Origin: an uncultured bacterium
GTDB lineage: Bacteria > Oederibacteriota > Muellerivitia > Muellerivitales > Muellerivitaceae
Assembly: GCA_964392085.1 (NCBI GenBank)
Contig: CAYMOV010000004.1
Coordinates: 16,808 to 80,807, forward strand
DNA length: 64,000 bases
Reading direction: 5' to 3'
Part shown: positions 16,372 through 51,958 of the stretch, piece by piece
Layout of the letters: each line of letters starts with the position of its first letter
Numbering within the stretch: the first letter of the stretch is position 1
Program-made: the position numbers and the translations under genes
Notes under the pieces: model-generated
Told to the model about the DNA's origin: nothing
Seen by the model: the letters and a program-made list of their open reading frames with translations, nothing else
Databases searched by the model: none

Positions 16372-16413
16372 ATGTTATCGCCGTCATATCGGATGTTCTA
16401 TGAGGAGGCTCAT
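16372..16413 (-). promoter_or_regulatory. Class II Crp/Fnr-type promoter for ahbD-crp1
   Basis: Box ATGAGGAGGCTCAT 16400-16413; -10 TAACAT (minus strand 16377-16372), 29.5 bp from box centre. Confidence 0.7.
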
Positions 16414-16505
16414 AGAGACTTCACAAATACCAGTAAAAATGGCTTGTTTTATTAATTTGTCATGACGAACTTCCTGCTATGATTTCTTGGCCAAATGAAG
16501 GGCCA

Positions 16506-16547
16506 ATGGGTTGGGTCATATCAGGGTCCGGGGCGCCCCCCCATAAT
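16506..16547 (+). promoter_or_regulatory. Class II Crp/Fnr-type promoter for the cytochrome c trio
   Basis: Box ATGGGTTGGGTCAT (1 mismatch) 16506-16519; -10 CATAAT 16542-16547, 29.5 bp from centre. Confidence 0.55.
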
Positions 16548-16668
16548 ACCGCAACGGATGCACCCGATTCTTCGTCCAAAAGACACGGGTTCCTCCTGAG
16601 GCCCCCGCAGGACCGGGGATCCTGGCGCTTTTTCGCGCCAAGGCCTTTCAAACATTCCGGAGGGAAAC

Positions 16669-17040
16669 ATGAAGCGTTTAATGAGTGTGGCTTTGGCGGG
16701 CCTTTTCACCGTCGCGGTGGTTCACGCGGCGGATGTGGACGGTAAGAAGGTGTTCGGCGCGAAATGCGCCATGTGTCACGGGCTGGACGGCAAGGGCAAA
16801 CCCGCCATGGCCAAGGTCAAGAAGCTGGATCCTTCAGCCCTCGACATGACCAAGGCCTCCACCACGGGCAAGCCCCTTGAGGAATTGATCAAGAACACCA
16901 GCGACGGCAACGGCAAGATGGGCGCCATGAAGGCCAAAATGACCCCGGCCGAAATCGAAGCCTCGGTCAAGTACATGCTCACGCTGTCGGCCGCCAAGGA
17001 CGGCAGCAAGAAGGACGCCGCGAAGTCGGATAAGAAATAA
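16669..17040 (+). CDS. Periplasmic monoheme class I cytochrome c, copy 1
   Basis: Signal peptide (VVHA-A), CAMCH, distal GKMGAM, Lys-rich. Confidence 0.9.
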   Translation: MKRLMSVALAGLFTVAVVHAADVDGKKVFGAKCAMCHGLDGKGKPAMAKVKKLDPSALDMTKASTTGKPLEELIKNTSDGNGKMGAMKAKMTPAEIEASVKYMLTLSAAKDGSKKDAAKSDKK

Positions 17041-17115
17041 GGTCCCCCCAAGGGCCGGGGCAATCCCCGGCCCGGTCTCGGGTGGGTCCTCAAACCAAAA
17101 AAGCGAGGGAATGCC

Positions 17116-17475
17116 ATGAAGAAGATCTGGATGACCGCGATGGTCGGGTTGTTGGCGGTGTCGATGGCCCAAGCGGCCGACGTGGACGGCAAGAAGGTGT
17201 TCGGGGCCAAATGCGCGATGTGCCACGGCTTGGACGCCAAGGGCAAGCCCGCCATGGCCAAGGCCAAGAAGGTGGATCCTTCGGCCATGGACTTGACCAA
17301 GGCCTCCACCCAGGCCAAGCCGGACGCCGACCTGGTGAAGGCCACGAGCGACGGCACCGGGAAAATGGCCGCCATGAAGGGCAAGATGACCCCGGCGGAG
17401 ATCGACGCCGCCGTGGCCTACCTGAAGACGCTCGGCGCCAAGAAGGACGCCCCGAAGGCCGACGACAAGAAGTAA
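17116..17475 (+). CDS. Periplasmic monoheme class I cytochrome c, copy 2
   Basis: Signal peptide (AQA-A), CAMCH, GKMAAM. Confidence 0.9.
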   Translation: MKKIWMTAMVGLLAVSMAQAADVDGKKVFGAKCAMCHGLDAKGKPAMAKAKKVDPSAMDLTKASTQAKPDADLVKATSDGTGKMAAMKGKMTPAEIDAAVAYLKTLGAKKDAPKADDKK

Positions 17476-17550
17476 ACTGTTCACCTGTTTCCCCGCGCCG
17501 CCGCGGGCGTTCTCGGCGGCGCGGTTTCTTTAATCTCGGAGGGAAAAGAC

Positions 17551-17898
17551 ATGAAGAAGATCTGGATGATGGCAGTGGCGGGTTTGATGGCCGTTTCCGT
17601 GGCCCACGCGGCCGATGTGGACGGCAAGAAGGTGTTCACCACGCGTTGCGCCATGTGCCACGGCCTGGACGCCAAGGGAAAACCCGCCATGGCCAAGGCC
17701 AAGAAGGTCGAACTTTCGGCGATGGACCTGACCAAGGCCGGCGTGGCCTCGAAGGACATCTCGAAGATCGTCACGAACGGAACCGGCAAAATGGCGGCCA
17801 TCAAGGGTTTGACCCCCGCGGAAGTCGACGCGGTGGCGGCTTACTTGAAGACCTTGGCCCCCGCGGCTGACGCCAAGAAAGCCGACGCGAAGAAGTAA
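17551..17898 (+). CDS. Periplasmic monoheme class I cytochrome c, copy 3
   Basis: Signal peptide (AHA-A), CAMCH, GKMAAI. Confidence 0.9.
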   Translation: MKKIWMMAVAGLMAVSVAHAADVDGKKVFTTRCAMCHGLDAKGKPAMAKAKKVELSAMDLTKAGVASKDISKIVTNGTGKMAAIKGLTPAEVDAVAAYLKTLAPAADAKKADAKK

Positions 17899-17924
17899 TA
17901 TAACGACGGCCTAGCCGTAAAACC

Positions 17925-17957
17925 AAAAGCCCCGGCCTTCTGGCCGGGGCTTTTTTT
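17925..17957 (+). terminator. Intrinsic terminator after the cytochrome c trio
   Basis: AAAAGCCCCGGCC-TTCT-GGCCGGGGCTTTTTTT. Confidence 0.85.
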
Positions 17958-18045
17958 ATTGGACGGACCAACCATCAACATCTCTGACCACGGGGTTAAA
18001 ACGACGATTACGATGGGCCGGCAACTCCAAATTCCTCACGCCTAA

Positions 18046-18186
18046 CAGGGTGCTGAAAAAGTGTTTTTCACCTTGCCAACGGCCATGTGGGTCGAGCGAA
18101 TCGCCGTGAATCCCCTGGTTTTTGGGGGGATGATTCGCGAGTAGGCCACGAAAAAGTCTCATCAGTTCGACTTTTTCATCCTCCTG
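18046..18186 (+). mobile_element. MITE copy 3 (141 bp)
   Basis: Same TIRs; CTAA duplications at 18042-18045 and 18187-18190. Confidence 0.85.
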
Positions 18187-18208
18187 CTAATTCCTAACCG
18201 CCGTCTGG

Positions 18209-19768
18209 TTAGGGTTTGGCGGTCAGGAATTTCCCGATGAAGGCCGGTTTCTCGCCGTCATGGCAGGTCACGCAAGTCTTCCGGAAGGTCTTCGCGTCGG
18301 GCTTCCAGGTGTGTTTTTCGTGGCATTGGGTGCAGGTCAGCCCCAGGTCCAAATGGGCCTGGTGTTTCCCCTTGTCCTGGATGCCCACATGGCACTTCAA
18401 GCAGGTGTCCCCTTTCGATTGGGGCGACCCCAGGTGCAGAACGTGGCACTCCCCGCAGGCCACCTTCGCCATGGGAGCGGTGGCCGGATGGTCCGCCTCA
18501 TCGTGGCATTGGAAACAGGCGCTGTTGGGCGGCTGGACGCTTCGGAGGCCCTGTCGGTCGGAGCTGGGGAGGCTGTTGTGGCAGGTGTCGCAGGACAGGG
18601 TCTTGTGGGTCGTCCCCTTGAGCAAGATCGGGTGGTCCATCTCTTGGGGGGCCTTCCCGGTCCCGAAATCGGGCCGGCTGTGGCACAGGTTGCAGTCCTG
18701 GGAGATGGTCTGGCCGTCCTCGCTCACGTGTTTTCCGTCATGGCACCGGAAACAGCCGGGCCCGCCTTGGGTGTGGCCAAGGTGGTTGGGGTTGCTGTTC
18801 CAATTGGTGTTCATCTCAGGGAACTGGGTCTTGTCGAAGATCCCCATGAGTTTGTCCGGAAGGGCGTTGATCTCCTGGGTCCGGGACGCGAAGACCTTAG
18901 GAAGGTTCCGCTTATAGAAATCCGGGAACTGATCCAATTCCTTCAGCGCGTCCTCCCTTGAACCATAGATCTTGTCCAGGAACTTGGAGGCCTGGTGCTT
19001 GAAATAAGGCAGGTCGGTCGGCAGGGTGCCGTTTTCCATCCCCTTATCCAGCCAGGCTTCGGGGGCCAAGTCCACGTGGGCCACCCGGTTGTGGCAATCC
19101 ATGCAATCCATCCGGCGGAGCCGGTCCTTCTCGACCGCCAACTTGTCCGCGTCCTGGAAGCCCTCCAGCCGGAAAATGGTTTCCTTTCCGTCGCGCTTCA
19201 CCTTCACCCAGGGGATCACCAGTCGCTTCTCATCGGCGGCGGCGTAATCCACTTCCTGCTCGATATGCCAATGGATGCCGTGGCCCTCGCGCCCCTCCAC
19301 CTCGGCGCCCCCGGTCTTCATGGTGAGGTTGACCCATTGGCGGGTATTGTCCGGGTCATCGCCGAAGTGGACCTTGGTGATCTTCTTGTCCCCGTAGTAT
19401 TTTTGGGGCCAATGGCATTGCTCGCAGGTGAACCTGGCGGGACGCAAGTGCTTCACGGGACCGACGATGGGCTTCGGATAGCTGTGGGTGAGCATGGAAT
19501 AGGTTTCCCGCGAGGCCTCGATCTTCGATTGGACCAGGTGGATGACCCCCGGGCCGATATGGCAGGTCCCGCAGTCCACCTTGGCGTGGGGGGAAAAATC
19601 GTGTTCCACCCGTTCGGGCTTCATCACGTGGCAGGTGTAGCCGCAGAACTGGGTGGTTTCCACCTCATGGACGCCCTTGAGGAGCGCGAGGAACACCAAG
19701 CCCCCCAGGAGGCCGGCGGCCCCGAGTAGGACAAAAAACCTGAAACCCAGGGGTGCGATCTTTTTCAT
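18209..19768 (-). CDS. Membrane-anchored NapC/NirT-family (ImcH-like) multiheme cytochrome, 12 heme motifs
   Basis: N-terminal TM helix, FCGYTCH (CX3CH) plus 11 CXXCH, RPARFTCEQCHWP, MDCMDCHNR. ATG 19768 with GGAGG. Confidence 0.8.
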   Translation of the reverse strand: MKKIAPLGFRFFVLLGAAGLLGGLVFLALLKGVHEVETTQFCGYTCHVMKPERVEHDFSPHAKVDCGTCHIGPGVIHLVQSKIEASRETYSMLTHSYPKPIVGPVKHLRPARFTCEQCHWPQKYYGDKKITKVHFGDDPDNTRQWVNLTMKTGGAEVEGREGHGIHWHIEQEVDYAAADEKRLVIPWVKVKRDGKETIFRLEGFQDADKLAVEKDRLRRMDCMDCHNRVAHVDLAPEAWLDKGMENGTLPTDLPYFKHQASKFLDKIYGSREDALKELDQFPDFYKRNLPKVFASRTQEINALPDKLMGIFDKTQFPEMNTNWNSNPNHLGHTQGGPGCFRCHDGKHVSEDGQTISQDCNLCHSRPDFGTGKAPQEMDHPILLKGTTHKTLSCDTCHNSLPSSDRQGLRSVQPPNSACFQCHDEADHPATAPMAKVACGECHVLHLGSPQSKGDTCLKCHVGIQDKGKHQAHLDLGLTCTQCHEKHTWKPDAKTFRKTCVTCHDGEKPAFIGKFLTAKP

Positions 19769-19796
19769 GTTTCCCTCCAAACCTGCGCGCCCCGCC

Positions 19797-21437
19797 TCAG
19801 CGGGGCGTTTTTTTATCTGATCGGCGCGGTCTGCCGTGCAACCAGGACCAATTCATGGGATAGACGTCCGGATCGAATAGGACCCAGTAAAAGTGCCAAA
19901 CCGGGATCGCCAGGGACGCCAAGACGGCCTCCCAGAAGTGCACGGACAGGAAGACATCCAAGATCCACTTGGGCATGTTCCCCAGGGACCAGTTCTTGAA
20001 GAAAACAAAGGAGCCCGTCAGGCCCATCACGCCCGTTCCCCAGACCAGGGCCCAATACTCCGCTTTTTCGATATACGTGAAGTGGCGGTGGGGCGGAGGC
20101 GTTTTCCGGCGGCCGAGAACATACATCAAACGTTGTTGCAGGTCACCCAAATCGTGCATCGCGGGAAGGATCGCCTTGAATTGTCGACGGCCCCTGTCGG
20201 TGAAGGCTAGGTAGGCGATGTGGAACAGGCTGGTACCCAGCAAGACCGCGGCGGCCCCCATATGGATGCCGTGGCGCCAGGCCGCGCCGTCGGCGAACCA
20301 GCTGAAAGGGGCGGCCCACCAGGCTTTGGGCCAAGTATGGGCGAAACCCGTGTAAGCCAACGTGACGAATGAACAGGCCAAAAGCGCGTGCTGCATCCTC
20401 TCAACCCGTTCCAACCGGGTCTCCTGGTAGAAGGATTCCGGGTAAAGGCTATGGCCTGGGTGGGTTAGCTTATAGATAAAATCCAACCCGTTGTGGGTCG
20501 CCATGCCCCCGACGGTCAAGAGGATCAGCCAAAAGTACATCCATTTGATGAAGTTGATCGGGGTCTTTTGCTCCGTATCCCGGGGGTTTTCGTGCATCCG
20601 GCCCTGGATCACGCCCGCGCCGGCCCCCGGGTGGCATTTGGAACAGGTCTGGGCCAGGTTGGCCGGGTTGACCGTGGACCTCGGATCCGAGGGCGGCAGG
20701 ATGTTATGCACGCCATGACAGGAGGAACAGTTCGCGGCCTTCAATACACCCGCCTTCAACGCGACGCCGTGGAACCCTCCCTGGTAGGTCTTGGCCACGT
20801 CCGGGTTGATCTTGAATTGTCCCGCGATGGCCACGCTGGCGTGGCATTGGGAACAGGTCTCGGGGATCCGTTGGGCCGAAACCGGCGAGTCGGGGTCGTC
20901 GGGTCCCAGGAACTTATGCTCCCCATGGCACGACGTGCAGACCGGAGCCTCGGCCACCCCGTTGCGCATGGCGGTGCCGTGGACGCTTCCCAGGTAATCC
21001 TTCACCACCTGGGGATGGCACTTGCCGCAGGTTTCCGGCAGTTTGCCCCGGCTGATGGGGGACCGGTCGTCGGAGGGCGGCAAGATCGCGTGGGGCGAAC
21101 CGTGGCACCGGAGGCAGGCCTCGGGCTCCCGAACGTCCTTCCAGAAGCGCCCGTGGTGGCTGGCCCGGAAAGTGTCGGCCATGTCGGCGTGGCAGGTGGC
21201 GCATTGCACCTTCTTCCGGCCGGTCGGGTGGGGGTATTCGGTGATGCCCTCGTGGCAATCGGCGCAGGAGAGCCCCTGGTGGATGGATCGTTGGAACAAT
21301 TTGGGTTGGACGAAAGGCGCGCCCGAGGTCTTGTCCCCATGGCAGGCCAGGCAAGTGTCGTGGTCCGACCCGGCCCGGAGTGGGCTGATCGCGAGGAACA
21401 GCGTGGCGGCCAGGAGGATGCATGCGGTTCGGTTCAT
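19797..21437 (-). CDS. CbcL-like protein: 9-heme periplasmic domain fused to FdnI/HydC-type cytochrome b
   Basis: Signal peptide, 9 CXXCH, then TM helices with RMQHAL, RHGIHMG, SVHFWEA, WHFYW and YTYIEK.EYWALVWG-type motif. ATG 21437 with GGAGG. Confidence 0.8.
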   Translation of the reverse strand: MNRTACILLAATLFLAISPLRAGSDHDTCLACHGDKTSGAPFVQPKLFQRSIHQGLSCADCHEGITEYPHPTGRKKVQCATCHADMADTFRASHHGRFWKDVREPEACLRCHGSPHAILPPSDDRSPISRGKLPETCGKCHPQVVKDYLGSVHGTAMRNGVAEAPVCTSCHGEHKFLGPDDPDSPVSAQRIPETCSQCHASVAIAGQFKINPDVAKTYQGGFHGVALKAGVLKAANCSSCHGVHNILPPSDPRSTVNPANLAQTCSKCHPGAGAGVIQGRMHENPRDTEQKTPINFIKWMYFWLILLTVGGMATHNGLDFIYKLTHPGHSLYPESFYQETRLERVERMQHALLACSFVTLAYTGFAHTWPKAWWAAPFSWFADGAAWRHGIHMGAAAVLLGTSLFHIAYLAFTDRGRRQFKAILPAMHDLGDLQQRLMYVLGRRKTPPPHRHFTYIEKAEYWALVWGTGVMGLTGSFVFFKNWSLGNMPKWILDVFLSVHFWEAVLASLAIPVWHFYWVLFDPDVYPMNWSWLHGRPRRSDKKTPR

Positions 21438-21461
21438 GGGCGGCCTCCCTTTTCCCCCGGG

Positions 21462-21490
21462 ATCTTGACTGGGACCCCATCCCTTGTCAA
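21462..21490 (-). promoter_or_regulatory. Sigma70-type promoter for the cbcL-like/imcH-like pair
   Basis: TTGACA-N17-CAAGAT on the minus strand, just downstream of a terminator. Confidence 0.5.
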
Positions 21491-21510
21491 CGCGTTCATC
21501 GGACCGGCTG

Positions 21511-21554
21511 AAATAAAAGAGGCCGGCCCTGCGCGTGCGGCGCATGACCGGCCC
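21511..21554 (-). terminator. Intrinsic terminator ending mtrAB
   Basis: Minus strand GGCCGG..TGCGC-loop-GCGCA..CCGGCC followed by TCTTTTATTT. Confidence 0.6.
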
Positions 21555-21624
21555 GAGCCCCGAGCGGGGCCTGTGAACCGGGGGAGCCTCCCTGAAAGGA
21601 TCCCCCGGGGTGAGCCTTCCTTTG

Positions 21625-21765
21625 CGGGGTGCGGAAAAAGTGTTTTTGCGCCCCGCCAACAGCCACGTGGTTCGAGCGAATCGCATTAAATCCCCCGGTT
21701 TTGGGGGGATGATCCGCGAGTACGGCATGAAAAAGTCTCTTCAGTCCGACTTTTTCATCATCCTG
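21625..21765 (+). mobile_element. MITE copy 4 (141 bp), inserted at the mtrB stop codon
   Basis: TIRs CGGGGTGCGGAAAAAG / CTTTTTCATCATCCTG; flanks TTTG / TTAG (1 mismatch). Confidence 0.8.
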
Positions 21766-23946
21766 TTAGAACTTCGCCGTCACCTGCGCGCCCGCGATGC
21801 TGGCGATGTAGTTCGAGGGATGGTCGCCGAGGAACACGCCCACCAAGGCGCCGGTGACCGGGTTGGTGATGACCTGGCCCTGGAACTGGTTGGCGAAATC
21901 ATTCACCTTGTAGACTTCCAGGGTGTACGAACCGGCCAACGACCAGGTGTTGTCCAACTTGACGGTCAACTTCGCCGTGTAGTCGTCCTGGAGGGTCGTG
22001 GTGTCGGGCAAGCCGCCCTCGATCACGGTGGCGGTGCTGGCTTGGTCCGTCATGAGCACCCGGCCAAGCGAGGAGGCCCGGGTGTAGCCGAGGTTCGAGG
22101 ACAAGCCCGAGCCCAGGTCGGCGTCCATGCCGATACCGTACACGATGTAATGCTCCTCGGTGCTGGCCTTCCAATAGTGGGCCGTGTCCTGGACACCGGC
22201 GGAATCGGCCTGGAGCGCGTTGTAGAGCTCATGCTCGTACATGGCGTTCAATCCGACCTTTTCGGAAACCTGCCAGTCCCCCGTGACCGAATGCATCACG
22301 TGCTTGTCGTTCAACAGGCCGTACTGCAGGGTGGTGGTCACCGCGCCGCCCACGTCTTGGCCCGTCAAGTCGCCGTTCGGCTGGAAGTCGTCGGTCCCGT
22401 GGGTGAAACGGTAGGAAACGTTCACCGTCTTGATCGGCGACAAACGCAGGTCGCCGCCCAGGTCCTTGCGGATCCGATTGGCCTCGTCGAAGCGGCGGAG
22501 GCCCGGCATGTCACCCGAGGCCAGCCAAGCCGTGGCGTTGTATTGGCTGACTTCCCGCTGGGCTTGGGAACCGGTCAGGGCCACCTTGACCCCTTTCACC
22601 GGGGTGACGTCCACCCCGCCCTTCACCGTGCGTTCGATCGACTTCGCGAACTCGCGGTCGGTGCGGAAGACGTCCTGGTAGATGTAGCCGCCGTTCAACC
22701 CCACGACCTTCAACAGGTCGTAGCGGGCTTCCCCCTCACCGGTGTAGGTCCGGTTCCCGAAGTAAGTGGGATAGGAGTTGCCGCCTGTGGCGCTGCCGCC
22801 CGTGGCGGCCTTGCCGCCGACCGTCACGGCGTTGCTCCGGTTGTCCATCTCATAACCCCGGAAGCGGGCCACCAACTTCAGCTTTTGGATCGGCATCACG
22901 GTAACCTGGTATTGCTGGCTGAAGGTGTCCACCCGCCCGCCGAGGTTGGCGGGATTCGGCACGGCGTTGTAGCCGAAGGTGGCCGCACTGTCGGCCGTAT
23001 AGGGCAAGAACGCCGCGTTTTGGTACCAACGGCCCACGGCCACATTGGCCGTCACCCGGGTCTTGGGGATCTGGTCCAACGACACGAACAATCCGGCTTG
23101 TTGCGCCAGGTTGCTCGGCGGCTGGCTGTAGAGGCCCTGGCTCGGCTTCGAGGAAGTGGGGACGGACCACATCAGGTCGTCGAAATGGATCGAGCTGATG
23201 TTGTCCTCAAAACTTGAGACGTTGCCGTTCAGCCGAACGACGGTCTTCGCGGGCATCCATTCGATGGAAAGCCCCCCGTCCGTCGTGCGTTGGTCGATCG
23301 GCGCGGGCAACTGGTTGATCACGCTGTTTTCGTACACGCTGAGCGGGCGGGTCCCCTGGCGCATCTTGACCTGTCCGTCCACGTTCATCGTCAACTGGGG
23401 CAATACATGGTACGTCACCCGGCCCCCGCCGAGCGTGTCCCGGAACATCACCACCGAGGGCGCCGTAGCGTTCTCGGCGGTCACCAGGTTGTTGAACTGC
23501 TGGGAGGCGTTCCCCACCTGGTTGGCGGCCGCCAAACCCGGAGGCAGGGTCAACACACCCGGCGCGGTCTCGGTATAAAGGGTGTGGGCCTGGTCCCCAT
23601 AGAGGTGCTGGTAGCGCTGGTAGTTGATGTCCACCGACACCTTGTCGGTTTCACCCAACCCCAACCCCACCCCGAGGGACTCGTTGTTCTCGGTCGGGAA
23701 GGCGAAGTCGGCGCGGAGGCGCTTGTCGCCCAGGTCGGCCCCGATCCAGCCGGTGGGGCCCAGCAGGCCCCCCGGCAGGTTGTTGTACTCCTCCAGCTTG
23801 GGGTTGGAGGACGTGGAGTAAACCCCGCCCACGCCCGTGGTGATCTCCCCATCCCAGATGGAGGCCGAAAAGGCTTGGGTCGTCAAGATGAGGGCCGCCG
23901 CGGCCGCCATCAGGCCCATGATCCCGGTTTTCAACGTGGTCTTCAT
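21766..23946 (-). CDS. mtrB: MtrB/PioB/DmsF-family outer-membrane beta-barrel porin
   Basis: Signal peptide, alternating beta-strand pattern, LPAPIDQRT, GLRRFDEANR, C-terminal Phe, directly downstream of a decaheme. ATG 23946 with AAGGAG. Confidence 0.85.
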   Translation of the reverse strand: MKTTLKTGIMGLMAAAAALILTTQAFSASIWDGEITTGVGGVYSTSSNPKLEEYNNLPGGLLGPTGWIGADLGDKRLRADFAFPTENNESLGVGLGLGETDKVSVDINYQRYQHLYGDQAHTLYTETAPGVLTLPPGLAAANQVGNASQQFNNLVTAENATAPSVVMFRDTLGGGRVTYHVLPQLTMNVDGQVKMRQGTRPLSVYENSVINQLPAPIDQRTTDGGLSIEWMPAKTVVRLNGNVSSFEDNISSIHFDDLMWSVPTSSKPSQGLYSQPPSNLAQQAGLFVSLDQIPKTRVTANVAVGRWYQNAAFLPYTADSAATFGYNAVPNPANLGGRVDTFSQQYQVTVMPIQKLKLVARFRGYEMDNRSNAVTVGGKAATGGSATGGNSYPTYFGNRTYTGEGEARYDLLKVVGLNGGYIYQDVFRTDREFAKSIERTVKGGVDVTPVKGVKVALTGSQAQREVSQYNATAWLASGDMPGLRRFDEANRIRKDLGGDLRLSPIKTVNVSYRFTHGTDDFQPNGDLTGQDVGGAVTTTLQYGLLNDKHVMHSVTGDWQVSEKVGLNAMYEHELYNALQADSAGVQDTAHYWKASTEEHYIVYGIGMDADLGSGLSSNLGYTRASSLGRVLMTDQASTATVIEGGLPDTTTLQDDYTAKLTVKLDNTWSLAGSYTLEVYKVNDFANQFQGQVITNPVTGALVGVFLGDHPSNYIASIAGAQVTAKF

Positions 23947-23969
23947 GTAGTTCTCCTTGCTTGTTCCGG

Positions 23970-25007
23970 TCAACGGAAGAAGGTCTGACCGGACGGGTCG
24001 TTGCTGCCGTGGATGTTCGAGTGGCAGTTCGTGCAGCCTTGCACCATCAGCCGGGCCGCGTTCTGCGACAGCTGCGTGTTGCCGATGCCGCCGGACCACT
24101 CCGTGCTCGGGTGGCCGCTGCCGCTGTGGCAGCGCTGGCAGAGCAGGGGTTCCCGCTCGCGCAACAGGTGGTCGTTGTGGCTGCCGTGGGGATCATGGCA
24201 GTTCAGGCAGTTCTCGCGCACCGGGGCGTGCTCCCAGAGGTAGGGGCCGCGCTTGTCCGCGTGGCAGGAGTAGCAGTTCTCATTGACCGAGTCGCCCTTC
24301 AGGTTGTGGTCGATCACCCCGCCGTGCGGGTTGTGGCAGGAGGTGCAGTTGATGTCGCCTTCCCGAACCGGCATGTGGGCGGAACGCTTCATCTGGGCTT
24401 TCTTGTCCGTGTGACAGCCGTAGCAAAGCTCGGGAGGCTCGGCTTTCAGCAGGTGGGCCTTCATGGTCTTCTCGGCCTGGTGGACCTGGTGGCAGTCGAC
24501 GCACTTCACGTCCTTCAGGTCGTGAGGGCTTCCCTTCCAATGGCTCTGCATGCCGCCCCGGTGGCAGGTCAGGCAAGCCGCGTTGGCTTCGGACGCCGGG
24601 AGGTTGGTGAGGTTCTTGATGGTGTGGAACCCGGGGTTGTCCTTGTCGCCGGCGGCGGCGGCATGGAGGCTGCCGGGGCCGTGGCAGGTCTCGCAGGTCC
24701 GTTGGAATTCCACACCCTTGCGGGCGGGCATCAAACGGGCGTGGATGGATTGCTTAAAAATCCCGCCCTGTTCGTCGTGACAACCCAGGCAAGTGTCCGC
24801 CCCGACGTATTCGGCCTTGTCCATCAAGGCCTTGGTTTCTTTCGCGCTCGACGTGTCGGCGGAGGCCGCAACGGGGGTTGGGTCAGCCGTCACCGTCTTT
24901 GTCGCGGTCTCGGCGGCGCTGGCGATCGCCAACCCCCCCAAGAGCGAAATCAAGACGGCTCCGACCGTCCAGCCGAGGCGCTGGATGTCTTTCCGGCTCA
25001 GGGCCAT
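23970..25007 (-). CDS. mtrA: MtrA/DmsE/PioA/MtoA-family decaheme cytochrome c
   Basis: 10 CXXCH, YVGADTCLGCH, KRGPYLWEHAPVRENCLNCHDPHGS, CTNCHSNIHGSNDPSG. Confidence 0.92.
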   Translation of the reverse strand: MALSRKDIQRLGWTVGAVLISLLGGLAIASAAETATKTVTADPTPVAASADTSSAKETKALMDKAEYVGADTCLGCHDEQGGIFKQSIHARLMPARKGVEFQRTCETCHGPGSLHAAAAGDKDNPGFHTIKNLTNLPASEANAACLTCHRGGMQSHWKGSPHDLKDVKCVDCHQVHQAEKTMKAHLLKAEPPELCYGCHTDKKAQMKRSAHMPVREGDINCTSCHNPHGGVIDHNLKGDSVNENCYSCHADKRGPYLWEHAPVRENCLNCHDPHGSHNDHLLREREPLLCQRCHSGSGHPSTEWSGGIGNTQLSQNAARLMVQGCTNCHSNIHGSNDPSGQTFFR

Positions 25008-25041: not shown

Positions 25042-25083
25042 AGGTTATCAATTTCTTTGCAGACGCAAGATGATACGCATCAC
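25042..25083 (-). promoter_or_regulatory. Class II Crp/Fnr-type promoter for mtrAB
   Basis: Box ATGATACGCATCAC 25070-25083; -10 TAACCT (25047-25042) at 29.5 bp. Confidence 0.7.
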
Positions 25084-25720
25084 ACAAGGCATTTTTTTGA
25101 TTCATTTTTCCATTTTATTTATTCTTGTTTAAAATCTTTAAAAATGGCCTTTTTTCGATAATCTGCCCATTATTAACCGCTTCTGCGTCACCCTTAGAAG
25201 GCCGTAAGTGAGTCCCAGATCATAAAAAAACGATATTCCGGAACATCTCGAAAAGCGTTATAAACCGGGCGATTTGGACTGTAAAGATCAAGAGCGTAAA
25301 TTCAACGACGAAATGTCCTCGAAATAAACCGACCGGTCCGTTCAGCCTTCCCAGAACCGGAACCCATGGTTTCGAAACCCAATCCCCTTGAGGCGAGTTC
25401 ATCCTCCCGGGCACCCACTAACCCGATCATCCAGGCCCCTTTCCACTATTGAGAAAAACCGCTTCAGCTTTCGACCTGAATCACCCAAACTTTTATAAGG
25501 CACTCTTGCCCTTTTTGATTTTCCAAGAATGGAGACCCACTGGAATTTAACCGAGGTGTGATTCCGGTGTTTCGCCGCATTGTTGTCTATATCATTATCC
25601 TAAACTATGATAGATAACATATCATTCAGTCCAAGTCGCCTTTATCCTCTGCTGGCTGGCGGATGCCCAAGGGGGCCATTCGCGCCCAGCCGCTGAGCAA
25701 TCACTACATGGAGGAAACGC

Positions 25721-39203: not shown

Positions 39204-39217
39204 GTGACTGGCATCAC
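39204..39217. promoter_or_regulatory. Crp/Fnr-type box, possibly a repression site
   Basis: GTGACTGGCATCAC 20 bp upstream of the ATG at 39184; no -10 at class II distance. Confidence 0.4.
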
Positions 39218-45391: not shown

Positions 45392-45434
45392 AGGTTAGTC
45401 TGGAGGTGGAAGAAGGCCATATGACGCCAGTCAC
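45392..45434 (-). promoter_or_regulatory. Class II Crp/Fnr-type promoter for the hypothetical-RR-HK-crp2-cNMP operon
   Basis: Box ATGACGCCAGTCAC 45421-45434; -10 TAACCT (45397-45392) at 30.5 bp. Confidence 0.7.
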
Positions 45435-45498
45435 AAAGGGCGTCTTGACAGACAAATCCAAGCAATGGTCGAACCTTCAAATAACCGCATTTTTAAAT

Positions 45499-45532
45499 AA
45501 AAAAGGCCCGCGGCGACCGGAAGCCGCGGGCC
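45499..45532 (-). terminator. Intrinsic terminator closing the structured RNA
   Basis: Minus strand GGCCCGCGGC-loop-GCCGCGGGCC-TTTTTT. Confidence 0.8.
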
Positions 45533-45655
45533 CAAGGCTTATTGTGCGGGCCCTGAAAGAGGGCTAAGCCTCATAAAGATGTGTTCCGAAGGCCGGGATC
45601 TTGATCAAGACCCGACCCTAGGCGGCGAGCTGTAGCACATCCGACTGTTGAGCGG

Positions 45656-45736
45656 CTACGCCGACACACTCAACAGCTTGAAGAGCCGGTCCCGTGGATC
45701 GGTGAAATAGGCCCGCACTGAGTTCAAGAAGCCCAT
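45656..45736 (-). CDS. Possible 26-aa leader peptide MGFLNSVRAYFTDPRDRLFKLLSVSA
   Basis: Open from ATG to TAG; the ATG lies in hairpin GCCCAT-GGG-ATGGGC; weak RBS. Confidence 0.25.
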   Translation of the reverse strand: MGFLNSVRAYFTDPRDRLFKLLSVSA

Positions 45737-45795
45737 CCCATGGGCAAATCTGGCCTTGGAAGGTTGACTTAAAGTTGGCCGTTGATTCGTGAGTA

Positions 45796-45837
45796 ACTAT
45801 ATTCCTGAAGGCATTGCGAGTTTATGACCTGCGTCAC
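45796..45837 (-). promoter_or_regulatory. Class II Crp/Fnr-type promoter for the structured RNA
   Basis: Box ATGACCTGCGTCAC 45824-45837; -10 TATAGT (45801-45796) at 29.5 bp. Confidence 0.7.
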
Positions 45838-45943: not shown

Positions 45944-45984
45944 ATGAGCGGGCTCATGGCTTACGATCAACAACTACTTAAAAT
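45944..45984 (+). promoter_or_regulatory. Class II Crp/Fnr-type promoter for the cydA-like operon
   Basis: Box ATGAGCGGGCTCAT 45944-45957; -10 TAAAAT 45979-45984 at 28.5 bp. Confidence 0.65.
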
Positions 45985-46002
45985 GCAGTCCGGAGGCTGC
46001 AC

Positions 46003-47319
46003 ATGAATTATCCGGTTTGGGAGATCCCCCAGTTGGGGGGAGGAATGTTGATCGGTATGGTGGCGATTTTTCACGTGTTCATTTCCCATTTCGCCGTGGG
46101 AGGTGGGTTGTTCCTGGTCCTGACCGAACGCAAAGCCTACCGCGAACGGAACGACGTCCTGTTGGCCTACGTCAAATCCCACTCGAAGTTCTTCGCCCTC
46201 CTCACCCTCGTCTTCGGGGCCCTTTCGGGTGTCGGCATCTGGTTCTCCATCGGCCTGGTGTCCCCCCCGGGCACCAGCGCCTTGATCCACCTGTTCGTCT
46301 GGGGATGGGCCGCCGAATGGGTGTTCTTCCTGGTCGAGATCACCGCCGCCCTCCTTTATTACACCACCTGGGACCGGTTGGACCGACGAACCCACGAGGC
46401 GATCGGCTGGATCTACGCCCTCTCGGCCTGGATGTCCCTGGTCATCATCAACGGTATCCTTTCCTTCATGTTGACCCCGGGGGGCTGGCTGGAGGACGGC
46501 TCCATCCTCTCGGCCTTCTTCAACCCGAGTTACCTCCCCTCCCTGATCATCCGCACCCTGGTCTGCCTCGCCCTGGCGGGGCTCTACGCCATGGGCACCG
46601 CCTCCTTGCTCAAACAACAGGACCTCCGGGAAAACCTCATCCGATATTCCGCCCGGTGGCTGATGCCGGCCTTCCTGTTGCTCCCCTTCGCCGGGGCTTG
46701 GTACGTCGCCTCCATCCCTCCATTGGCCCGGCAGATTTCCATGGGAGGGGCGGCCGCCGTCACCCTCTTCGCGGTGGGAAGCGTCGCCTTCTCGATCCTT
46801 TTGTTTGTTTTCGCCTACCTGCTCGCCTACCGGCACCCCCGGGGCTTCTCCCCGGCCTTGGCCGCTCTTTTCCTAGTCTTGGGGCTCATGACCACCGGGG
46901 TCACCGAATGGGTCCGGGAAGCCGTCCGCAAGCCCTACTTGATCTACGGCTATATGTATTCCAACGGCATGCGCGCGAAGGATCTCCAGGCCATGCCGAC
47001 CGGCGAGAGCCTTTTGGCGGCGTCCAAGTGGTCCCACCTGAAAACGGTGCCGTCGGGCCAGGAACCCGCAGCCGGGCATGAGGTCTTCCGCATCCAATGC
47101 GCGGCCTGCCATACGCTGCGGGGGTATAACGGCATCGCGCTCCTGGTGGACGGTTGGGACGAGGACCTGTTGGCGGACCAAATCCAGCACCTCGACATGC
47201 TCAAGGGATTCATGCCTCCCTTTAAGGGTTCCAACCCGGAGCGGTTGGCCCTCGCGAAATATCTTTTCAACCTCGAAAAGCGATCGCCCGTCTCGACCAC
47301 CCTGGAGGTGAAACCATGA
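46003..47319 (+). CDS. Cytochrome bd subunit I-like protein with C-terminal cytochrome c domain
   Basis: FHVFISHFAVGG, WAAEWVFFLVE, FFNPS, EWVREAVRKPY, CAACH...MPPF. Confidence 0.8.
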   Translation: MNYPVWEIPQLGGGMLIGMVAIFHVFISHFAVGGGLFLVLTERKAYRERNDVLLAYVKSHSKFFALLTLVFGALSGVGIWFSIGLVSPPGTSALIHLFVWGWAAEWVFFLVEITAALLYYTTWDRLDRRTHEAIGWIYALSAWMSLVIINGILSFMLTPGGWLEDGSILSAFFNPSYLPSLIIRTLVCLALAGLYAMGTASLLKQQDLRENLIRYSARWLMPAFLLLPFAGAWYVASIPPLARQISMGGAAAVTLFAVGSVAFSILLFVFAYLLAYRHPRGFSPALAALFLVLGLMTTGVTEWVREAVRKPYLIYGYMYSNGMRAKDLQAMPTGESLLAASKWSHLKTVPSGQEPAAGHEVFRIQCAACHTLRGYNGIALLVDGWDEDLLADQIQHLDMLKGFMPPFKGSNPERLALAKYLFNLEKRSPVSTTLEVKP

Positions 47320-48410
47320 CACCCCTTCCCATCCCGTCCGCCGACCCGTTGGGAATCCCAGGCCCGGTTTGGTTGATGCAGGCCCTTTCCTGCCTTACCC
47401 TCTTTCTCCATTTCTTGGCGGCCCATTTGGCCCTGGGAGGCACGCTCTTGGCCGTCCTGGCCCGGGGGCGGGGCGACGGCGCCGGGGACCGGCTTGCGGC
47501 TTGGCATTTCAGGATCCTGCCGGTGTTCATCGCCGCCGCCGTGACCCTGGCGATCCCGCCCCTGTTGTTCCTCCAGGTCCTGTACGGACCCTTCTTTTAC
47601 TCGGCCAGCGTTCTGACCGCGGCGCCCTGGTTCAGCCTGCTGTTCCTCATGGGGGCCGGTTACCTCCTGGCCTACCTGTTGAACTTCCAATGGGACTCCT
47701 GGAAGGCCCGCGCGGGTTGGGTGGGTGGCGCCATCGTCCTCCTTTTCTCCGGGGTGACCCTGATCCTGACCTCCCTCACGCTCCTGTCCCTGCACCCGGA
47801 TCGCTGGAGCGCCCTCTACGGGGATCCCCACCTGGGTTTGAAGTGGGACGGCGGGTTGCCCACCCTCTTGCCGCGATATCTGCATCTGTGGCTAGCCGCT
47901 CCGGCGGTCGCAGGGGCCTTCTTCGCGCTTGTGGGCCAGGGGTGGATCCGAAAGGGGCTCCGGGAAGGGGATTGGGTGGCTCAATACGGGGCCGCCTGGT
48001 TCCTCTCCGTCACCTTGGTCCAATTTGGGGTCGGGACCTGGTTCCTATTGTCCCATCCCAGGGACATCTGGATGGGGGTGATGGGAGGCGACTTGGCCGC
48101 CACAGGGGCCTTCATGACCGCGATGGGGGCGATCTTGGTTTCCATGGTTCTTTACGGGGTCGGGCTCTTCAAACTCCGGGCCTACGGCTGGACCTGGGCC
48201 GGTTGGATCGGCCTTCTGGTGACCCTGGTCTCCATGACCGCGGTTCGGCTGCACCTGAGGGACCTTGATCTGAAGCCTTACTTGGAGGGGATGTGGATCA
48301 CCCACGACCAATGGGGATTCATCACGATCTTCCTGGCGCTTTTGGTCGCCGGGTTCGGGACAGTGGGTTGGATGCTGGTGAAAGTCTTCGGGAAAAAGCC
48401 GACGGCCTAA
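47316..48410 (+). CDS. Second CydA-like/partner membrane subunit
   Basis: LFLHFLAAHLALGG, IPPLLFLQVLYG, PRYLHLW; ATGA overlap with the previous gene. Confidence 0.65.
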   Translation: MTPLPIPSADPLGIPGPVWLMQALSCLTLFLHFLAAHLALGGTLLAVLARGRGDGAGDRLAAWHFRILPVFIAAAVTLAIPPLLFLQVLYGPFFYSASVLTAAPWFSLLFLMGAGYLLAYLLNFQWDSWKARAGWVGGAIVLLFSGVTLILTSLTLLSLHPDRWSALYGDPHLGLKWDGGLPTLLPRYLHLWLAAPAVAGAFFALVGQGWIRKGLREGDWVAQYGAAWFLSVTLVQFGVGTWFLLSHPRDIWMGVMGGDLAATGAFMTAMGAILVSMVLYGVGLFKLRAYGWTWAGWIGLLVTLVSMTAVRLHLRDLDLKPYLEGMWITHDQWGFITIFLALLVAGFGTVGWMLVKVFGKKPTA

Positions 48411-48704: not shown

Positions 48705-49499
48705 TTATAAAAAAGCCTTCCAGGTAAACAAGGTCAGGATCATGTAAACCAGTGAATGGGCCATTTCCAGGAGCCCTAATTTCATGATCGGTAGCCCGGG
48801 TCTTCCTTGTGAGACGCCCCCCAGGGCCCTTAAAAAAGCCACGAGGGGCCCGAGGGCCAGCCAACCGCCCCCATGCGGACAAGCCAAAATCCCCAGGACA
48901 AATAAACCGTGGAGCGCAACGGTTCGGCGGCCATCGCGCCAACGCCGAGCCCCACCGATTGCCACGCCATTCCGGGAGGCCGCCAGCCAACCTTGGCGAA
49001 CCTTGACATAGGTCAGGGCCAACAACGATTGACCCGCGAAGAGGGCGTAAAGCCAAAGGGCCTTGTCGTTGGAGCCCTGGGGGCCGCAGAGATAGATCAC
49101 GGGGACCAGCAAGGGCAATCCGAGGAACCCCAATGCCTCGGCCCAAAAGAACCGGAGGGACTTCTTCCAAAGGTAAAATCCCGCCATGGCCGCGCCGAGG
49201 GGGATCACCCCCAAAAGCACCCAACGAATCGCGGTCGGGGGGGAGGCCGCCCAGAACCACCAGCCCGACAGGAGGAAGGCCACGCATTCCAACAGGAAAA
49301 TTCCCAGGGCTTGGGTCGCTTTGGCCGGGTCGGCGACCCGCCATTGCCGCCAAACGTTCAGGGGGGCGCGAAGGATGAACCCTAGGACGAAAAAGCAGGA
49401 AACCGATAGGGCGGCGCCGTTCCAGGACCCCAAGGTGAGCCATCCGGCCACCAGGGAAACCCATAGGACGTTCCAGGCGCCGTGTTCTTTGGGGAACAT
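48705..49499 (-). CDS. YwiC-like membrane protein
   Basis: N-terminal PKEHGAW motif, multiple TM helices, GGAGGT RBS. Confidence 0.75.
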   Translation of the reverse strand: MFPKEHGAWNVLWVSLVAGWLTLGSWNGAALSVSCFFVLGFILRAPLNVWRQWRVADPAKATQALGIFLLECVAFLLSGWWFWAASPPTAIRWVLLGVIPLGAAMAGFYLWKKSLRFFWAEALGFLGLPLLVPVIYLCGPQGSNDKALWLYALFAGQSLLALTYVKVRQGWLAASRNGVAIGGARRWRDGRRTVALHGLFVLGILACPHGGGWLALGPLVAFLRALGGVSQGRPGLPIMKLGLLEMAHSLVYMILTLFTWKAFL

Positions 49500-49517
49500 G
49501 TCCTCACCTCCGGACTG

Positions 49518-49559
49518 ATCTTAGCCGAGGGCCCCGGGGAAGGCCGTGATTTAGGTCTC
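49518..49559 (-). promoter_or_regulatory. Class II Crp/Fnr-type promoter for the ywiC-like operon
   Basis: Box GTGATTTAGGTCTC (1 mismatch) 49546-49559; -10 TAAGAT (49523-49518) at 29.5 bp. Confidence 0.6.
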
Positions 49560-49584
49560 GGAATAATGTTTGTCCTTGGAGTAC

Positions 49585-50667
49585 TCAGCAGATCCTAGGA
49601 AGCTGTTCGCCGGACAAAAGGTCGAGGTATCGCTCACTCCCCAAGGGGGTATGGAGGGTCACTCGGGGTGATTCACCCGGAATGGCGGTTTCCACTTTGC
49701 CGATGCGAACCGCCCCCGAGGAGACCGGAATGCACCGGAGAACCTTCAGGGCGCGGTCGGATTGATCTCCCGGCACGAAAATCGCGAACCGTCCCTCATT
49801 GGCCACGTACAACGGGTCCAGCCCCAGGATCTCGCAGGAGGACCGAACCGGTCCTGAGACGGGTACCAGGGATTCCTCGACGGAGAGCGGAAACCCGGAA
49901 TCCCTTGTGAACTCGTTAAGGGTCGCCGCGAGACCCCCCCGGGTGAGGTCCCGGAGGCCGTGCACCTCCACCCCCGATTCCAGGAGAGCCTTCACCGCGG
50001 GCCATAGACAGGCGCAATCGGAAACCACCTCGGTCTCGAACGCCAGCCCCTGTCGGACCGCCAGGATCGCCACCCCGTGGCGTCCCAGGTCCCCCGAGAC
50101 CAAGATCGCGTCGCCTGGGCGGATCGCTTGGGGACCGATGGGATGGGGGGCCAGGACCTCGCCGATCCCGGCCGTGGTCACGAACATTCCGTCGCCCTTG
50201 CCCTTATCCACGACCTTGGTGTCCCCCGTCACCAGGGCGACCCCGGCCTCGTCGGCGGTACGCCGCATGGAAGACACCACCCGTTCCAAGTCTTGGATCG
50301 GCAGGCCTTCTTCCAGGATAAAGGCGCAGGACAAGGCCATCGGTCGGGCCCCCGCCATGGCGAGGTCGTTGACCGTCCCGAACACCGACAAGGAGCCGAT
50401 GTCGCCCCCGGGAAAAAAGATCGGTTGGACCACGAAACTGTCGGTGGTGAAGGCCAGCCGGCCCGCGGCCTCAAGGATCGCCGAGTCGTGGCGGGACTCC
50501 ACTGATTGGGTTCCGAACCCCTTCCGGAAGACCCGGTCAATGAGGTCGTTCATGACCGTTCCGCCCCCTCCATGGGCCATGACGATCTTGTCCCCAGGCC
50601 CGAAAGGAACGGGGCAATTTAATTGTAAACTGTTCTTGGGCTCGTCTGGCATTTCTAGCGTCTCCAT
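49585..50667 (-). CDS. hypE: Hydrogenase maturation carbamoyl dehydratase
   Basis: MAHGGGG, FTTDSFVVQPIFFPGGDIG, RDLTRGG, C-terminal QLPRIC. Confidence 0.96.
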   Translation of the reverse strand: METLEMPDEPKNSLQLNCPVPFGPGDKIVMAHGGGGTVMNDLIDRVFRKGFGTQSVESRHDSAILEAAGRLAFTTDSFVVQPIFFPGGDIGSLSVFGTVNDLAMAGARPMALSCAFILEEGLPIQDLERVVSSMRRTADEAGVALVTGDTKVVDKGKGDGMFVTTAGIGEVLAPHPIGPQAIRPGDAILVSGDLGRHGVAILAVRQGLAFETEVVSDCACLWPAVKALLESGVEVHGLRDLTRGGLAATLNEFTRDSGFPLSVEESLVPVSGPVRSSCEILGLDPLYVANEGRFAIFVPGDQSDRALKVLRCIPVSSGAVRIGKVETAIPGESPRVTLHTPLGSERYLDLLSGEQLPRIC

Positions 50668-50748
50668 CCTCAGGTCGCCACCATCTAGTCGTGTCTTGAA
50701 TTTATAATTTAAGTATTAAGCCAACAACCCAAAACTGAATATCCAAAG

Positions 50749-51831
50749 CTATCTTCGATAACGGAAGTACGCCGAACAAGCCCCCTCGCTGGAGACCATA
50801 GGGGCCCCGAGGGGATGTTCGGGGGTGCAGGTTTTCCCGAAGGCTTCGCAGGCCTGGGGTCGGATCTTACCCGTGAGGACTTCCCCGCTCCGGCATTCAG
50901 GGGATTCCTCGGCCGAGATGCCCTGGAGAGAGAACTTGGTTTCGGCGTCGTAGGCCGCGTAGGGTTCCGACAAGCCCAGTCCGCTGGCGGAGATCTCGCC
51001 CAAACCGCGCCATTTACGGGTGATCACCCGGAAAACCTCCGAGATCAGGTTTTGCGCCCCGGGATTTCCCCCGTCACGGGCGGTCCGAAGGTAGGGGTTT
51101 TCCACCCCGTAAGAGCCCTTTTCAAGTTGCCGAACGCACAGGAGGATGCCCTGGAGGACGTCGAGGGGCTCGAACCCAGTGACCACGATGGGAACCTTGT
51201 ACTTTTTGGCCAGGGGAACGTATTCGGAGGTGCCCATGACCGTACAAACATGCCCCGCGGCCAGAAACCCTTGGACCTTGTTTCCGGGATCCGAAAGGAT
51301 GGCCTCCATCGCGGGGGGGACCAGCACGTGGGAGACGAGCAGGGAAAAGTTCTTCAGGCCCTCCCGGTGGGCCTGGTACACCGCCATGGCGTTCGCGGGG
51401 GCCGTGGTCTCGAAGCCGACGGCGAAGAATACCACTTCACGGGTTGGGTTGTCCCGGGCGATTTGGACGGCGTCCAAGGGCGAGTAGACGATCCGGACGT
51501 CGCCGCCAGCGGCTTTGACCTTCAACAGGTCCGTCTTGGAACCGGGAACCCGAAGCATGTCACCGAAGGAGGTGAAGAGGACCCCCGGCCGTTGGGCCAC
51601 CGCCATGGCGCGGTCCAACACCTCCACGGAGGTCACGCAAACCGGGCAACCCGGGCCATGCACCAGGGTCAAAGTCGGGGGCAATAGGTCTTCGAGCCCA
51701 TATTTGACGATGGAGTGGGTCTGTCCCCCGCAGATTTCCATGAGGGTCCAGGGGCGGGTCACCGTTCGAGCGATCTCCCGGAGCAGGCCCTTGGCCATCC
51801 CCGGGTCGCGGAATTCATCAAGGTACTTCAT
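50749..51831 (-). CDS. hypD: Hydrogenase maturation protein
   Basis: [39 protein letters not shown]. Confidence 0.96.
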
Positions 51832-51915
51832 GTCGGATCCCCCGCCCAGGAGGGACGGGGAAACGTCAGGCGGATATTCACGGGGTTCCCTCCCACCCTG
51901 AATCCTGCGATCACC

Positions 51916-51958
51916 AGACTACTCCCTTCCGCCGGACGAAAGCCATGATTTGCGTCAC
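51916..51958 (-). promoter_or_regulatory. Class II Crp/Fnr-type promoter for hypDE
   Basis: Box ATGATTTGCGTCAC 51945-51958; -10 TAGTCT (51921-51916) at 30.5 bp. Confidence 0.7.

Follow-up and report, generated by a model that had tools for sequence, protein, structure and literature searches.

Two CRP/FNR-family regulators, Crp1 and Crp2, are encoded in a stretch of 64 kb of DNA from an uncultured bacterium of the Muellerivitaceae (contig CAYMOV010000004.1), which was analysed as a whole and is called the window in the following. Around them lie genes for an AhbD-like radical SAM protein, an MtrA/MtrB-like electron conduit, a bd-like oxidase and hydrogenase maturation, and a palindromic DNA box, RTGA-N6-TCAT, recurs upstream of these genes. 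This repeated box is real and marks promoters of respiration and energy metabolism. We think that the boxes are probably operators of class II type, bound by Crp1 and/or Crp2, and the arguments for and against this assignment are given below.

The boxes and their downstream genes

The window has a guanine plus cytosine (GC) content of 61.6%. Its genes were mapped by scoring of open reading frames (ORFs) combined with Pfam and NCBIfam searches, which leaves 7.1 kb (11% of the window) as intergenic DNA. The first-pass annotation had listed eight RTGA-N6-TCAT boxes. Six of them are exact (16400, 25070, 45421, 45824, 45944 and 51945) and all six are intergenic; the remaining two carry one core mismatch each, TGG for TGA in the box at 16506 (ATGGGTTGGGTCAT) and TCT for TCA in that at 49546 (GTGATTTAGGTCTC). 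The eight -10-like hexamers and their distances from the boxes were found as it had described them, and so was the promoter-proximal half TCAT in seven of the eight. The boxes were also ranked with a position weight matrix (PWM) built from 19 sites of relatives only, with the consensus TATGAC-N4-GTCATA.

The box at 16400–16413 (minus strand; ATGAGCCTCCTCAT, with the palindrome TCTATGAG-N4-CTCATAGA; PWM rank 3) is followed at 29.5 bp from its centre by the -10 hexamer TAACAT (16377–16372). Downstream, from 16325 to 14380 on the minus strand, lie an AhbD/NirJ-like radical SAM gene, whose score of 439 bits is below the TIGR04545 cut-off of 500, and then crp1. A weaker box on the plus strand (16506–16519, ATGGGTTGGGTCAT; PWM rank 12, score 8.3), with CATAAT at 16542–16547, precedes three cytochrome c genes (16669–17898, plus strand). 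The relative L062, with a Crp1 of 98% identity, has kept both boxes and both core promoters of the 16326–16668 spacer, the 16400 box and its entire core promoter being identical, and the DNA between them has diverged; the 16506 box is conserved only in this relative. The -10 of the promoter in front of the radical SAM gene and crp1 is overlapped by a degenerate second box, ATGACGGCGATAAC (16374–16387, minus strand), which may serve autorepression; L059 and L060 have kept a similar sequence, TATGATGCAGATAACA, upstream of their crp1.

The electron conduit is preceded by the exact box at 25070–25083 (GTGATGCGTATCAT in the minus-strand reading), with TAACCT at 25047–25042. The genes behind it, from 25007 down to 18209 on the minus strand, code for a decahaem cytochrome of the DmsE/MtrA family, an MtrB/PioB porin and two multihaem proteins. 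Two further boxes were absent from the first-pass annotation. One of them (25607–25620, plus strand, ATGATAGATAACAT; PWM rank 2) has TATCCT (25643–25648) at 29.5 bp and precedes an H+-pyrophosphatase gene (25721–28198, plus strand), whose orthologues carry the boxes GTGATACTCAACAT in L060 and GTGATTCTAAACAT in L059, each with TATTCT at 29.5 bp. The other (32973–32986, minus strand, ATGTCAACGGACAT; PWM rank 6) has TACAAT (32950–32945) at the same distance and precedes an operon for ADP-forming acyl-CoA synthetase and acetyl-CoA hydrolase-GNAT (32899 down to 28926, minus strand). Its counterpart in L154, L155 and L158 is GTGATAGCCGACAT with TAGGAT, in front of the same gene and with the same GACAT proximal half.

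The best PWM match in the window is the exact box at 45421–45434 (minus strand, GTGACTGGCGTCAT), with TAACCT at 45397–45392. It stands in front of a gene string (45257 down to 41597, minus strand) with 0–49 bp between neighbours, formed by hyp173, a response regulator, a histidine kinase, crp2 and a gene for a cyclic nucleotide monophosphate (cNMP)-binding domain. On the plus strand, the exact box at 45944–45957 (ATGAGCGGGCTCAT; TAAAAT at 45979–45984) precedes a bd-like oxidase subunit I fused to cytochrome c, together with the next gene (46003–48410), the predicted leader being about 12 nt long. The weak box at 49546–49559 (minus strand, GAGACCTAAATCAC; TAAGAT at 49523–49518), in front of a YwiC-like gene (49499–48705, minus strand), is outside the 30 best PWM matches. 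The exact box at 51945–51958 (minus strand, GTGACGCAAATCAT; TAGTCT at 51921–51916) precedes hypD-hypE (51831 down to 49585, minus strand). The promoters of the oxidase (45979–46005) and of YwiC (49497–49523) share the core TAARAT-(0–1 nt)-CAGTCCGGAGG with an ATG 6–7 nt later, so that both leaders would have only about 12 nt and start at the ribosome-binding site.

The remaining exact box (45824–45837, minus strand, GTGACGCAGGTCAT; TATAGT at 45801–45796) precedes a plausible small RNA of about 296 nt (45494–45789, minus strand), which would extend from a predicted start near 45789 to an intrinsic terminator. This terminator is strong, with a stem at 45533–45504 followed by a T run. None of 200 shuffles folds as well as the 296-nt RNA (z = -3.7), and on the transcribed minus strand of this region downstream of 45824 the ORFs do not exceed 34 amino acids. 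No Rfam family reaches threshold for the candidate, and it was not seen upstream of the oxidase in L153. A 19-nt island, GGCTAAGCCTCATAAAGAT, which differs by one base between the window (45562–45580) and L153 (4150–4168) in a spacer that is otherwise unalignable, falls inside the candidate on the opposite strand.

Three more exact TGA-N6-TCA sites, at 39172, 39205 and 39290 (span 39172–39303), had not been listed in the first-pass annotation, and they have no class II spacing. The site at 39172 covers the start codon of hyp117, a 117-amino-acid gene of unknown function (38831–39184) with a strong ribosome-binding site, and that at 39205 (GTGACTGGCATCAC), a near-duplicate of the 45421 box, is located within its leader. 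The three sites were considered as the promoter of a multihaem/Rieske/cytochrome b operon and rejected, since they fall on the leader and the start codon of the small gene and have no such spacing.

Enrichment and promoter geometry

Over the whole window, 13 strand matches to RTGA-N6-TCAT were counted at 10 distinct sites, where 1.9 matches would be expected, and none of 100 shuffles reaches 13. The comparison with shuffled intergenic DNA, proposed in the first-pass annotation as a check, agrees with this result: the inner dyad TGA-N6-TCA occurs nine times in intergenic DNA, where 1.2–1.3 occurrences are expected, and none of 2000 shuffles reaches nine. All 64 trinucleotide palindromic dyads were also scanned with spacings of 0–12, and TGA-N6-TCA ranks first of these 832 in intergenic DNA (Bonferroni-corrected P = 0.009). 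Since the dyad tops an unbiased scan, the motif is not an artefact of the pattern chosen at first.

A hexamer of the form TANNNT starting 28.5–30.5 bp from the box centre was sought in either direction from each exact TGA-N6-TCA site. It was found at six of the nine intergenic sites and at none of 16 coding sites; with a random intergenic background of 5.6%, the binomial P for the intergenic sites is about 2e-6. Taking the hexamer to span positions -12 to -7 places the centre of the box near -41.5, and simple arithmetic then yields the start sites predicted in the first-pass annotation. For the exact boxes and the two added ones, the predicted starts are 16365, 25035, 25656, 32938, 45385, 45789, 45991 and 51909. 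One-mismatch intergenic sites with the right spacing number five of 23, against 1.3 expected; thus, some degenerate sites are probably real, and individual calls are uncertain. One such box, ATGGATAAAGTCAT at 12978–12991, has TAACCT at 28.5 bp and lies upstream of mutY (13164–14234); with a PWM score of 7.2 it may be due to chance. In the asymmetric boxes the half that contains G is distal and CAT is proximal in about seven of eight oriented cases, which is suggestive only, and four window boxes have the distal half GTGA, as in CRP sites.

The same geometry is found outside the window. At 22 sites in relatives, the commonest distances of TANNNT are 29.5 bp (10 sites) and 30.5 bp (three sites), other offsets having about one site each. 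Moreover, the eight best matches of the relatives-only PWM in the window are all intergenic, the six exact boxes of the first-pass annotation are all within the ten best, and the matrix adds the two promoters at 25607 (H+-pyrophosphatase) and 32973 (ADP-forming acyl-CoA synthetase). The predicted regulon is wider than had been stated.

It could be argued that the boxes arise by chance from the composition of AT-richer intergenic DNA, combined with a -10 window set post hoc. ATG and CAT abound around gene starts, the offset window was picked after looking at the sequence, and two of the eight boxes needed a mismatch. We consider this extremely improbable, as no intergenic shuffle of the 2000 attains the observed count, the offset window is the a-priori class II value, independent sites of relatives give the same offset peak, and a matrix blind to the window recovers the boxes.

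The regulators

Crp1 (14380–15096, minus strand) and Crp2 (42156–42905, minus strand) share 29% identity. In each of them PF00027 and PF13545 score above the gathering threshold, which is the architecture of the CRP/FNR superfamily. Both are below the cut-off of every named NCBIfam subfamily, including CRP, FNR, FixK, NtcA and FnrL: the FNR model PRK11161, with a cut-off of 228, gives 35.7 and 36.4 bits, and the CRP model PRK11753 gives 62.8 and 51 bits against 266. The closest solved structure by sequence is Thermus CRP (4ev0; E = 7e-23).

The recognition helix was confirmed to be common to both regulators, GTTVETCIR in Crp1 and GTTVETAIR in Crp2, and both genes indeed stand in tightly packed strings downstream of boxes, at 16400 and 45421. 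The helices have Glu and Arg four residues apart, as in the CRP/FNR superfamily, whose targets are palindromes of the TGA-N6-TCA type; in CRP and FNR the helix Glu and Arg read the TGA core (PMC1274295).

The Crp1 family has at least 120 homologues with 52–98% identity, in genomes of 37–63% GC. Its signature is GTTVET(C/S)IR, with V-E-x-x-I-R invariant in about 110 of 120 homologues, and C90, C101, C102 and C111, located in the beta-roll sensor domain, are 100% conserved in the 120 family members listed. In an alignment to 4ev0, three of the four cysteines flank the positions expected for the Glu and Arg of the nucleotide pocket. What we take to be these two positions are occupied by Thr and Tyr in Crp1, which makes cAMP binding unlikely. 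We infer that Crp1 is a thiol-based metal or iron–sulphur (Fe-S) sensor in which such a site would replace nucleotide binding.

Crp2, in comparison, is restricted to the lineage, with nine homologues at 73–98% identity (one of them a 144-amino-acid fragment) and the next at 36% or less. The last gene of the crp2 operon codes for the stand-alone cNMP-binding-domain protein (41597–42106), directly followed by a hemerythrin gene in L154, L155 and L158, and an adenylate/guanylate cyclase with a dCache-like sensor is encoded at 10947–12773. The cyclase, the cNMP-domain protein and the hemerythrin are hints of a cyclic-nucleotide or O2 input to the box circuit.

Conservation in relatives

Exact RTGA-N6-TCAT boxes precede Crp1-family genes in L063 (ATGAGTTCGGTCAT), L065 (ATGACTGACGTCAT), L163 (ATGACAGGTGTCAT) and L159 (GTGATCTTTGTCAT), whose identity is 57–64% and whose GC content is 37–54%; in L159, with 37% GC, the box is followed by TATAAT at 29.5 bp. 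These four loci hold further intergenic boxes nearby. The locus of L153, with a Crp2 of 85% identity, is syntenic with the window, and its spacer upstream of the response regulator, histidine kinase and crp2 genes is unalignable apart from two conserved islands, the box GTGACGAATGTCAT with TAGCTT at 30.5 bp and the 19-nt element. In L154, L155 and L158 (Crp2 identity 74–78%) a box upstream of the response-regulator gene has TAACCT at 29.5–30.5 bp. L150–L152 are uninformative, as they belong to the same strain as the window (99.9% identical); this strain is present in the samples ERZ27245399, ERZ27245408 and JGI 3300028573. Around these regulators TATGA-N6-TCATA reaches 6.5 per 100 kb, and control loci, 1.76 Mb in all, have 0.11 per 100 kb. 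The boxes of relatives, the 29.5-bp peak and the relatives-only matrix support the proposal, made in the first-pass annotation, of one CRP/FNR-type regulon tied to the local regulators.

We have considered a factor encoded outside the window, such as a CRP/FNR paralogue or a Rex-like repressor, as the protein that binds the boxes, with Crp1 and Crp2 as bystanders or mere targets. The window shows only 64 kb of the genome, the GTGA distal half of four boxes is a core of CRP/Rex type (a Rex-like protein reads GTGA-N6-TCAC), and a published rule for residue 180 would pair Val with TTGA, not with ATGA or GTGA (PMC1274295). We regard such a factor as quite unlikely: exact boxes adjoin genes of the Crp1 or Crp2 family in eight of nine independent lineages, the window included, and base frequencies predict about 0.02 boxes for an upstream region of 300 bp; the boxes are about 57 times as dense around these regulators as in control loci; and the family consensus ends in ATGA...TCAT, not in TGTGA.

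Footprinting was also attempted through the bd-like oxidase, whose relatives reach at most 58% full-length identity in scans of genomes and metagenome contigs and 67% in the protein database. This approach failed, as a box was found in only one of 28 upstream regions, that of L058 (GTGACCTATGTCAT at -49). L056, with 73% identity over the N-terminal part only, lacks synteny and a box. Among the labelled hits, the nearest come from metagenome-assembled genomes of Methylomirabilis / Methylomirabilales (58–73%).

The gene order around crp1 differs between the window and some relatives. In L059, L060 and L061 (Crp1 identity 80–85%) crp1 and the H+-pyrophosphatase gene are divergent neighbours about 510 bp apart, and in the window there are instead about 10 kb between them (15168–25007). 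This segment holds the AhbD-like radical SAM gene, three cytochromes c, the MtrB/PioB porin, the MtrA-like decahaem protein, and NapC/NirT-like and cytochrome b561-fused multihaem proteins, and each of its edges has a promoter with a box. The segment resembles an electron-transfer island that was gained and put under the same control. In the distant lineages L063, L065 and L163, boxes adjoin genes for acetyl-CoA synthetase, ADP-forming acyl-CoA synthetase/GNAT, a VIT1 iron transporter, hemerythrin, cytochrome c and sensor kinases, and acetate activation may be a conserved core of the regulon.

Proposed operation of the boxes

In the mechanism that we propose, dimeric CRP/FNR regulators with the helix T-V-E-T-(C/A/S)-I-R, Crp1 and/or Crp2, would bind the boxes. 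At a minimum of eight promoters the box centre lies 28.5–30.5 bp upstream of a -10-like TANNNT, which puts it at about -41.5, over a poor -35 region, as in class II activator-dependent promoters. In the active state of its sensor domain, the regulator would attach to the box and bring in RNA polymerase. Crp1 likely perceives its signal through a Cys4 site with metal or Fe-S, sensitive to redox state, O2 or nitric oxide, at the place of the former nucleotide pocket. The regulon would comprise the AhbD-like radical SAM gene with crp1, the MtrA/MtrB-like electron conduit, the response regulator–kinase–crp2 operon, the bd-like oxidase, hypDE, the small RNA, the H+-pyrophosphatase and the ADP-forming acyl-CoA synthetase operon, with the cytochrome c genes as probable members and YwiC as a possible one. 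The enrichment of the motif, its fixed spacing, its conservation and its association with regulator genes across lineages are observations; the identity of the binding protein, activation over repression, the positions of the starts and the nature of the signal are deductions.

The same proteins might instead use the boxes mainly as repressor operators that occlude the -35, or the two regulators might divide the sites between them, one reading ATGAG-N4-CTCAT and the other GTGAY-N4-RTCAT. The box does overlap the -35 position, the degenerate ATGACGGCGATAAC sits on the -10 of the crp1 promoter, and the 39205 and 39172 sites lie in the leader and over the start codon of hyp117. Besides, the fifth base of the half-site sets the perfect ATGAG palindromes at 16400 and 45944 apart from the remaining four boxes. 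The hexamers after the boxes (AGAACA, CTTGCG, ATGGCC, AAACTC, GGCTTA and GGCTTT), however, match TTGACA poorly when compared by eye, which is typical of activator-dependent promoters; such weak -35-like hexamers fit activation and prove nothing. Moreover, the exact 29.5-bp phasing is needed for class II activation and not for occlusion. The ATGAG/GTGAY split is not clean, because the box of the Crp1-like gene of L063 pairs an ATGAG half with ATGAC, and sub-classes for separate regulators were dropped as unsupported in relatives. We think that predominant repression or such a division is unlikely.

Several observations weigh against the reading of the boxes as class II operators of Crp1 and/or Crp2. 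Coding DNA is also about two-fold rich in TGA-N6-TCA (17 sites against 8.1 in dinucleotide shuffles), so that composition contributes something, and this excess is probably an effect of codon usage. Two of the eight boxes listed at first, 16506 and 49546, are degenerate. The exact intergenic sites at 25039, 39205 and 39290, as well as the autoregulatory boxes of L065 and L163, lack class II spacing, and for this reason some sites may repress or act from other positions; a box that overlaps the -35 could equally be a repressor operator. Furthermore, L059–L061, with 80–85% identity in Crp1, have only degenerate boxes upstream of crp1, the hypD box is not conserved in L153 or L154, and no box was found upstream of the 67% oxidase orthologue of L153 or of oxidases with 58% identity or less. 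With these points taken into account, we still hold it to be probable, on the evidence of motif, spacing and conservation, that the boxes are class II-type operators of Crp1 and/or Crp2.

Relation to known systems

In core sequence, architecture, geometry and type of target, the boxes and their regulators agree with FNR/CRP systems. Escherichia coli FNR has the same two-domain architecture, a helix with Val-Glu...Arg, a TGA-N6-TCA core and respiratory targets, and in its class II promoters the box is likewise about 41.5 bp from the start, which is a predicted one in the window; autoregulation is likely. The window boxes differ from the FNR box, TTGAT-N4-ATCAA, as they read (T)ATGAC-N4-GTCAT(A) or GTGA and never TTGA in the class II sites. 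In the PWM the base before TGA is A with 0.81 and T with 0.01, and all six class II window boxes have A or G there. The Ser of FNR that reads the first T of TTGAT is replaced by Ile in Crp1 and Crp2. A further difference is the cysteine cluster, which in FNR is N-terminal (three plus one central), whereas the four invariant cysteines of Crp1 are inside the beta-roll.

With CRP and its relatives (GlxR, Vfr, Thermus CRP 4ev0) the boxes share the class II geometry and, in the GTGA distal half of four of them, the CRP core. In contrast to the Arg180-Glu181-Arg185 helix of CRP, Crp1 and Crp2 have Val at the position of Arg180. The first-pass annotation had described the box as distinct from those of both FNR and CRP. 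This is correct for the base before TGA, which is A or G and never T, and only for that base; four boxes have the CRP-like GTGA as their distal half.

The closest described motif is that of HcpR1, wyTTGACnnnnGTCAArw, from delta-proteobacteria and cyanobacteria (Rodionov et al. 2005, PMC1274295). It has the same inner palindrome, TGAC-N4-GTCA, it is also a prediction from comparative genomics, and its regulator has no cysteine motif of FNR type. The flank of the HcpR1 motif is T, compared with A or G here, HcpR is without the Cys4 motif of Crp1, and the targets here are not hcp/frdX; no hcp was found among the window genes scanned, with eight genes at 53278–63973 left out of the scan, for three of which the calls in relatives give PFOR, HypC and HypF. 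According to the residue-180 rule published with this motif, Arg goes with G, and Ser or Pro go with T in the HcpR1 branch (PMC1274295); the rule does not predict ATGA for Val. Our literature search, in which few subscription journals were covered, did not find ATGA-N6-TCAT or the Cys4 subfamily, and yielded only the HcpR1 motif and general papers on FNR.

As for the sensor, the Fe-S cluster of Bacillus subtilis Fnr is C-terminal. This protein provides a precedent for cluster cysteines away from the N-terminus, in line with a remark in PMC8510549. Unlike those of B. subtilis Fnr, the cysteines of Crp1 surround the former nucleotide pocket within the sensor beta-roll, where the cluster itself is putative. 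With this Cys4 site, FNR-like proteins may have a redox cluster in a third position.

Biological significance

Understanding of class II activation is unchanged by these results, which are mechanistically unsurprising. Most likely, the regulator belongs to a so far undescribed, cysteine-rich branch of the CRP/FNR superfamily, and what has been found is a new variant of a textbook mechanism and not a new system. More tentatively, and with less confidence than in the assignment of the boxes, we suggest that Crp1 may stand for a widespread undescribed subfamily with a Cys4 sensor and its own operator, TATGAC-N4-GTCATA, which the Ser-to-Ile change would specify. If this is true, Crp1 would govern a redox regulon of the lineage, in which the redox state is coupled to the electron conduit and the bd-like oxidase, to hydrogenase maturation and acetate activation, and to the H+-pyrophosphatase and a small RNA. 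The lineage-specific Crp2, itself controlled by a two-component system, would share these boxes with Crp1.

This lineage respires with an MtrAB-like electron conduit and a bd-like oxidase, together with hydrogenase maturation, and for an uncultured lineage of this kind a testable regulatory map is now available, with a consensus operator, about ten promoters with predicted starts and two candidate regulators. The replacement of the FNR Ser by Ile, which goes with A or G for T before TGA, is a data point for the recognition code. Moreover, the signatures of helix, Cys4 motif and operator define a broad CRP/FNR subfamily, and they may allow regulon prediction in many metagenome-assembled genomes.

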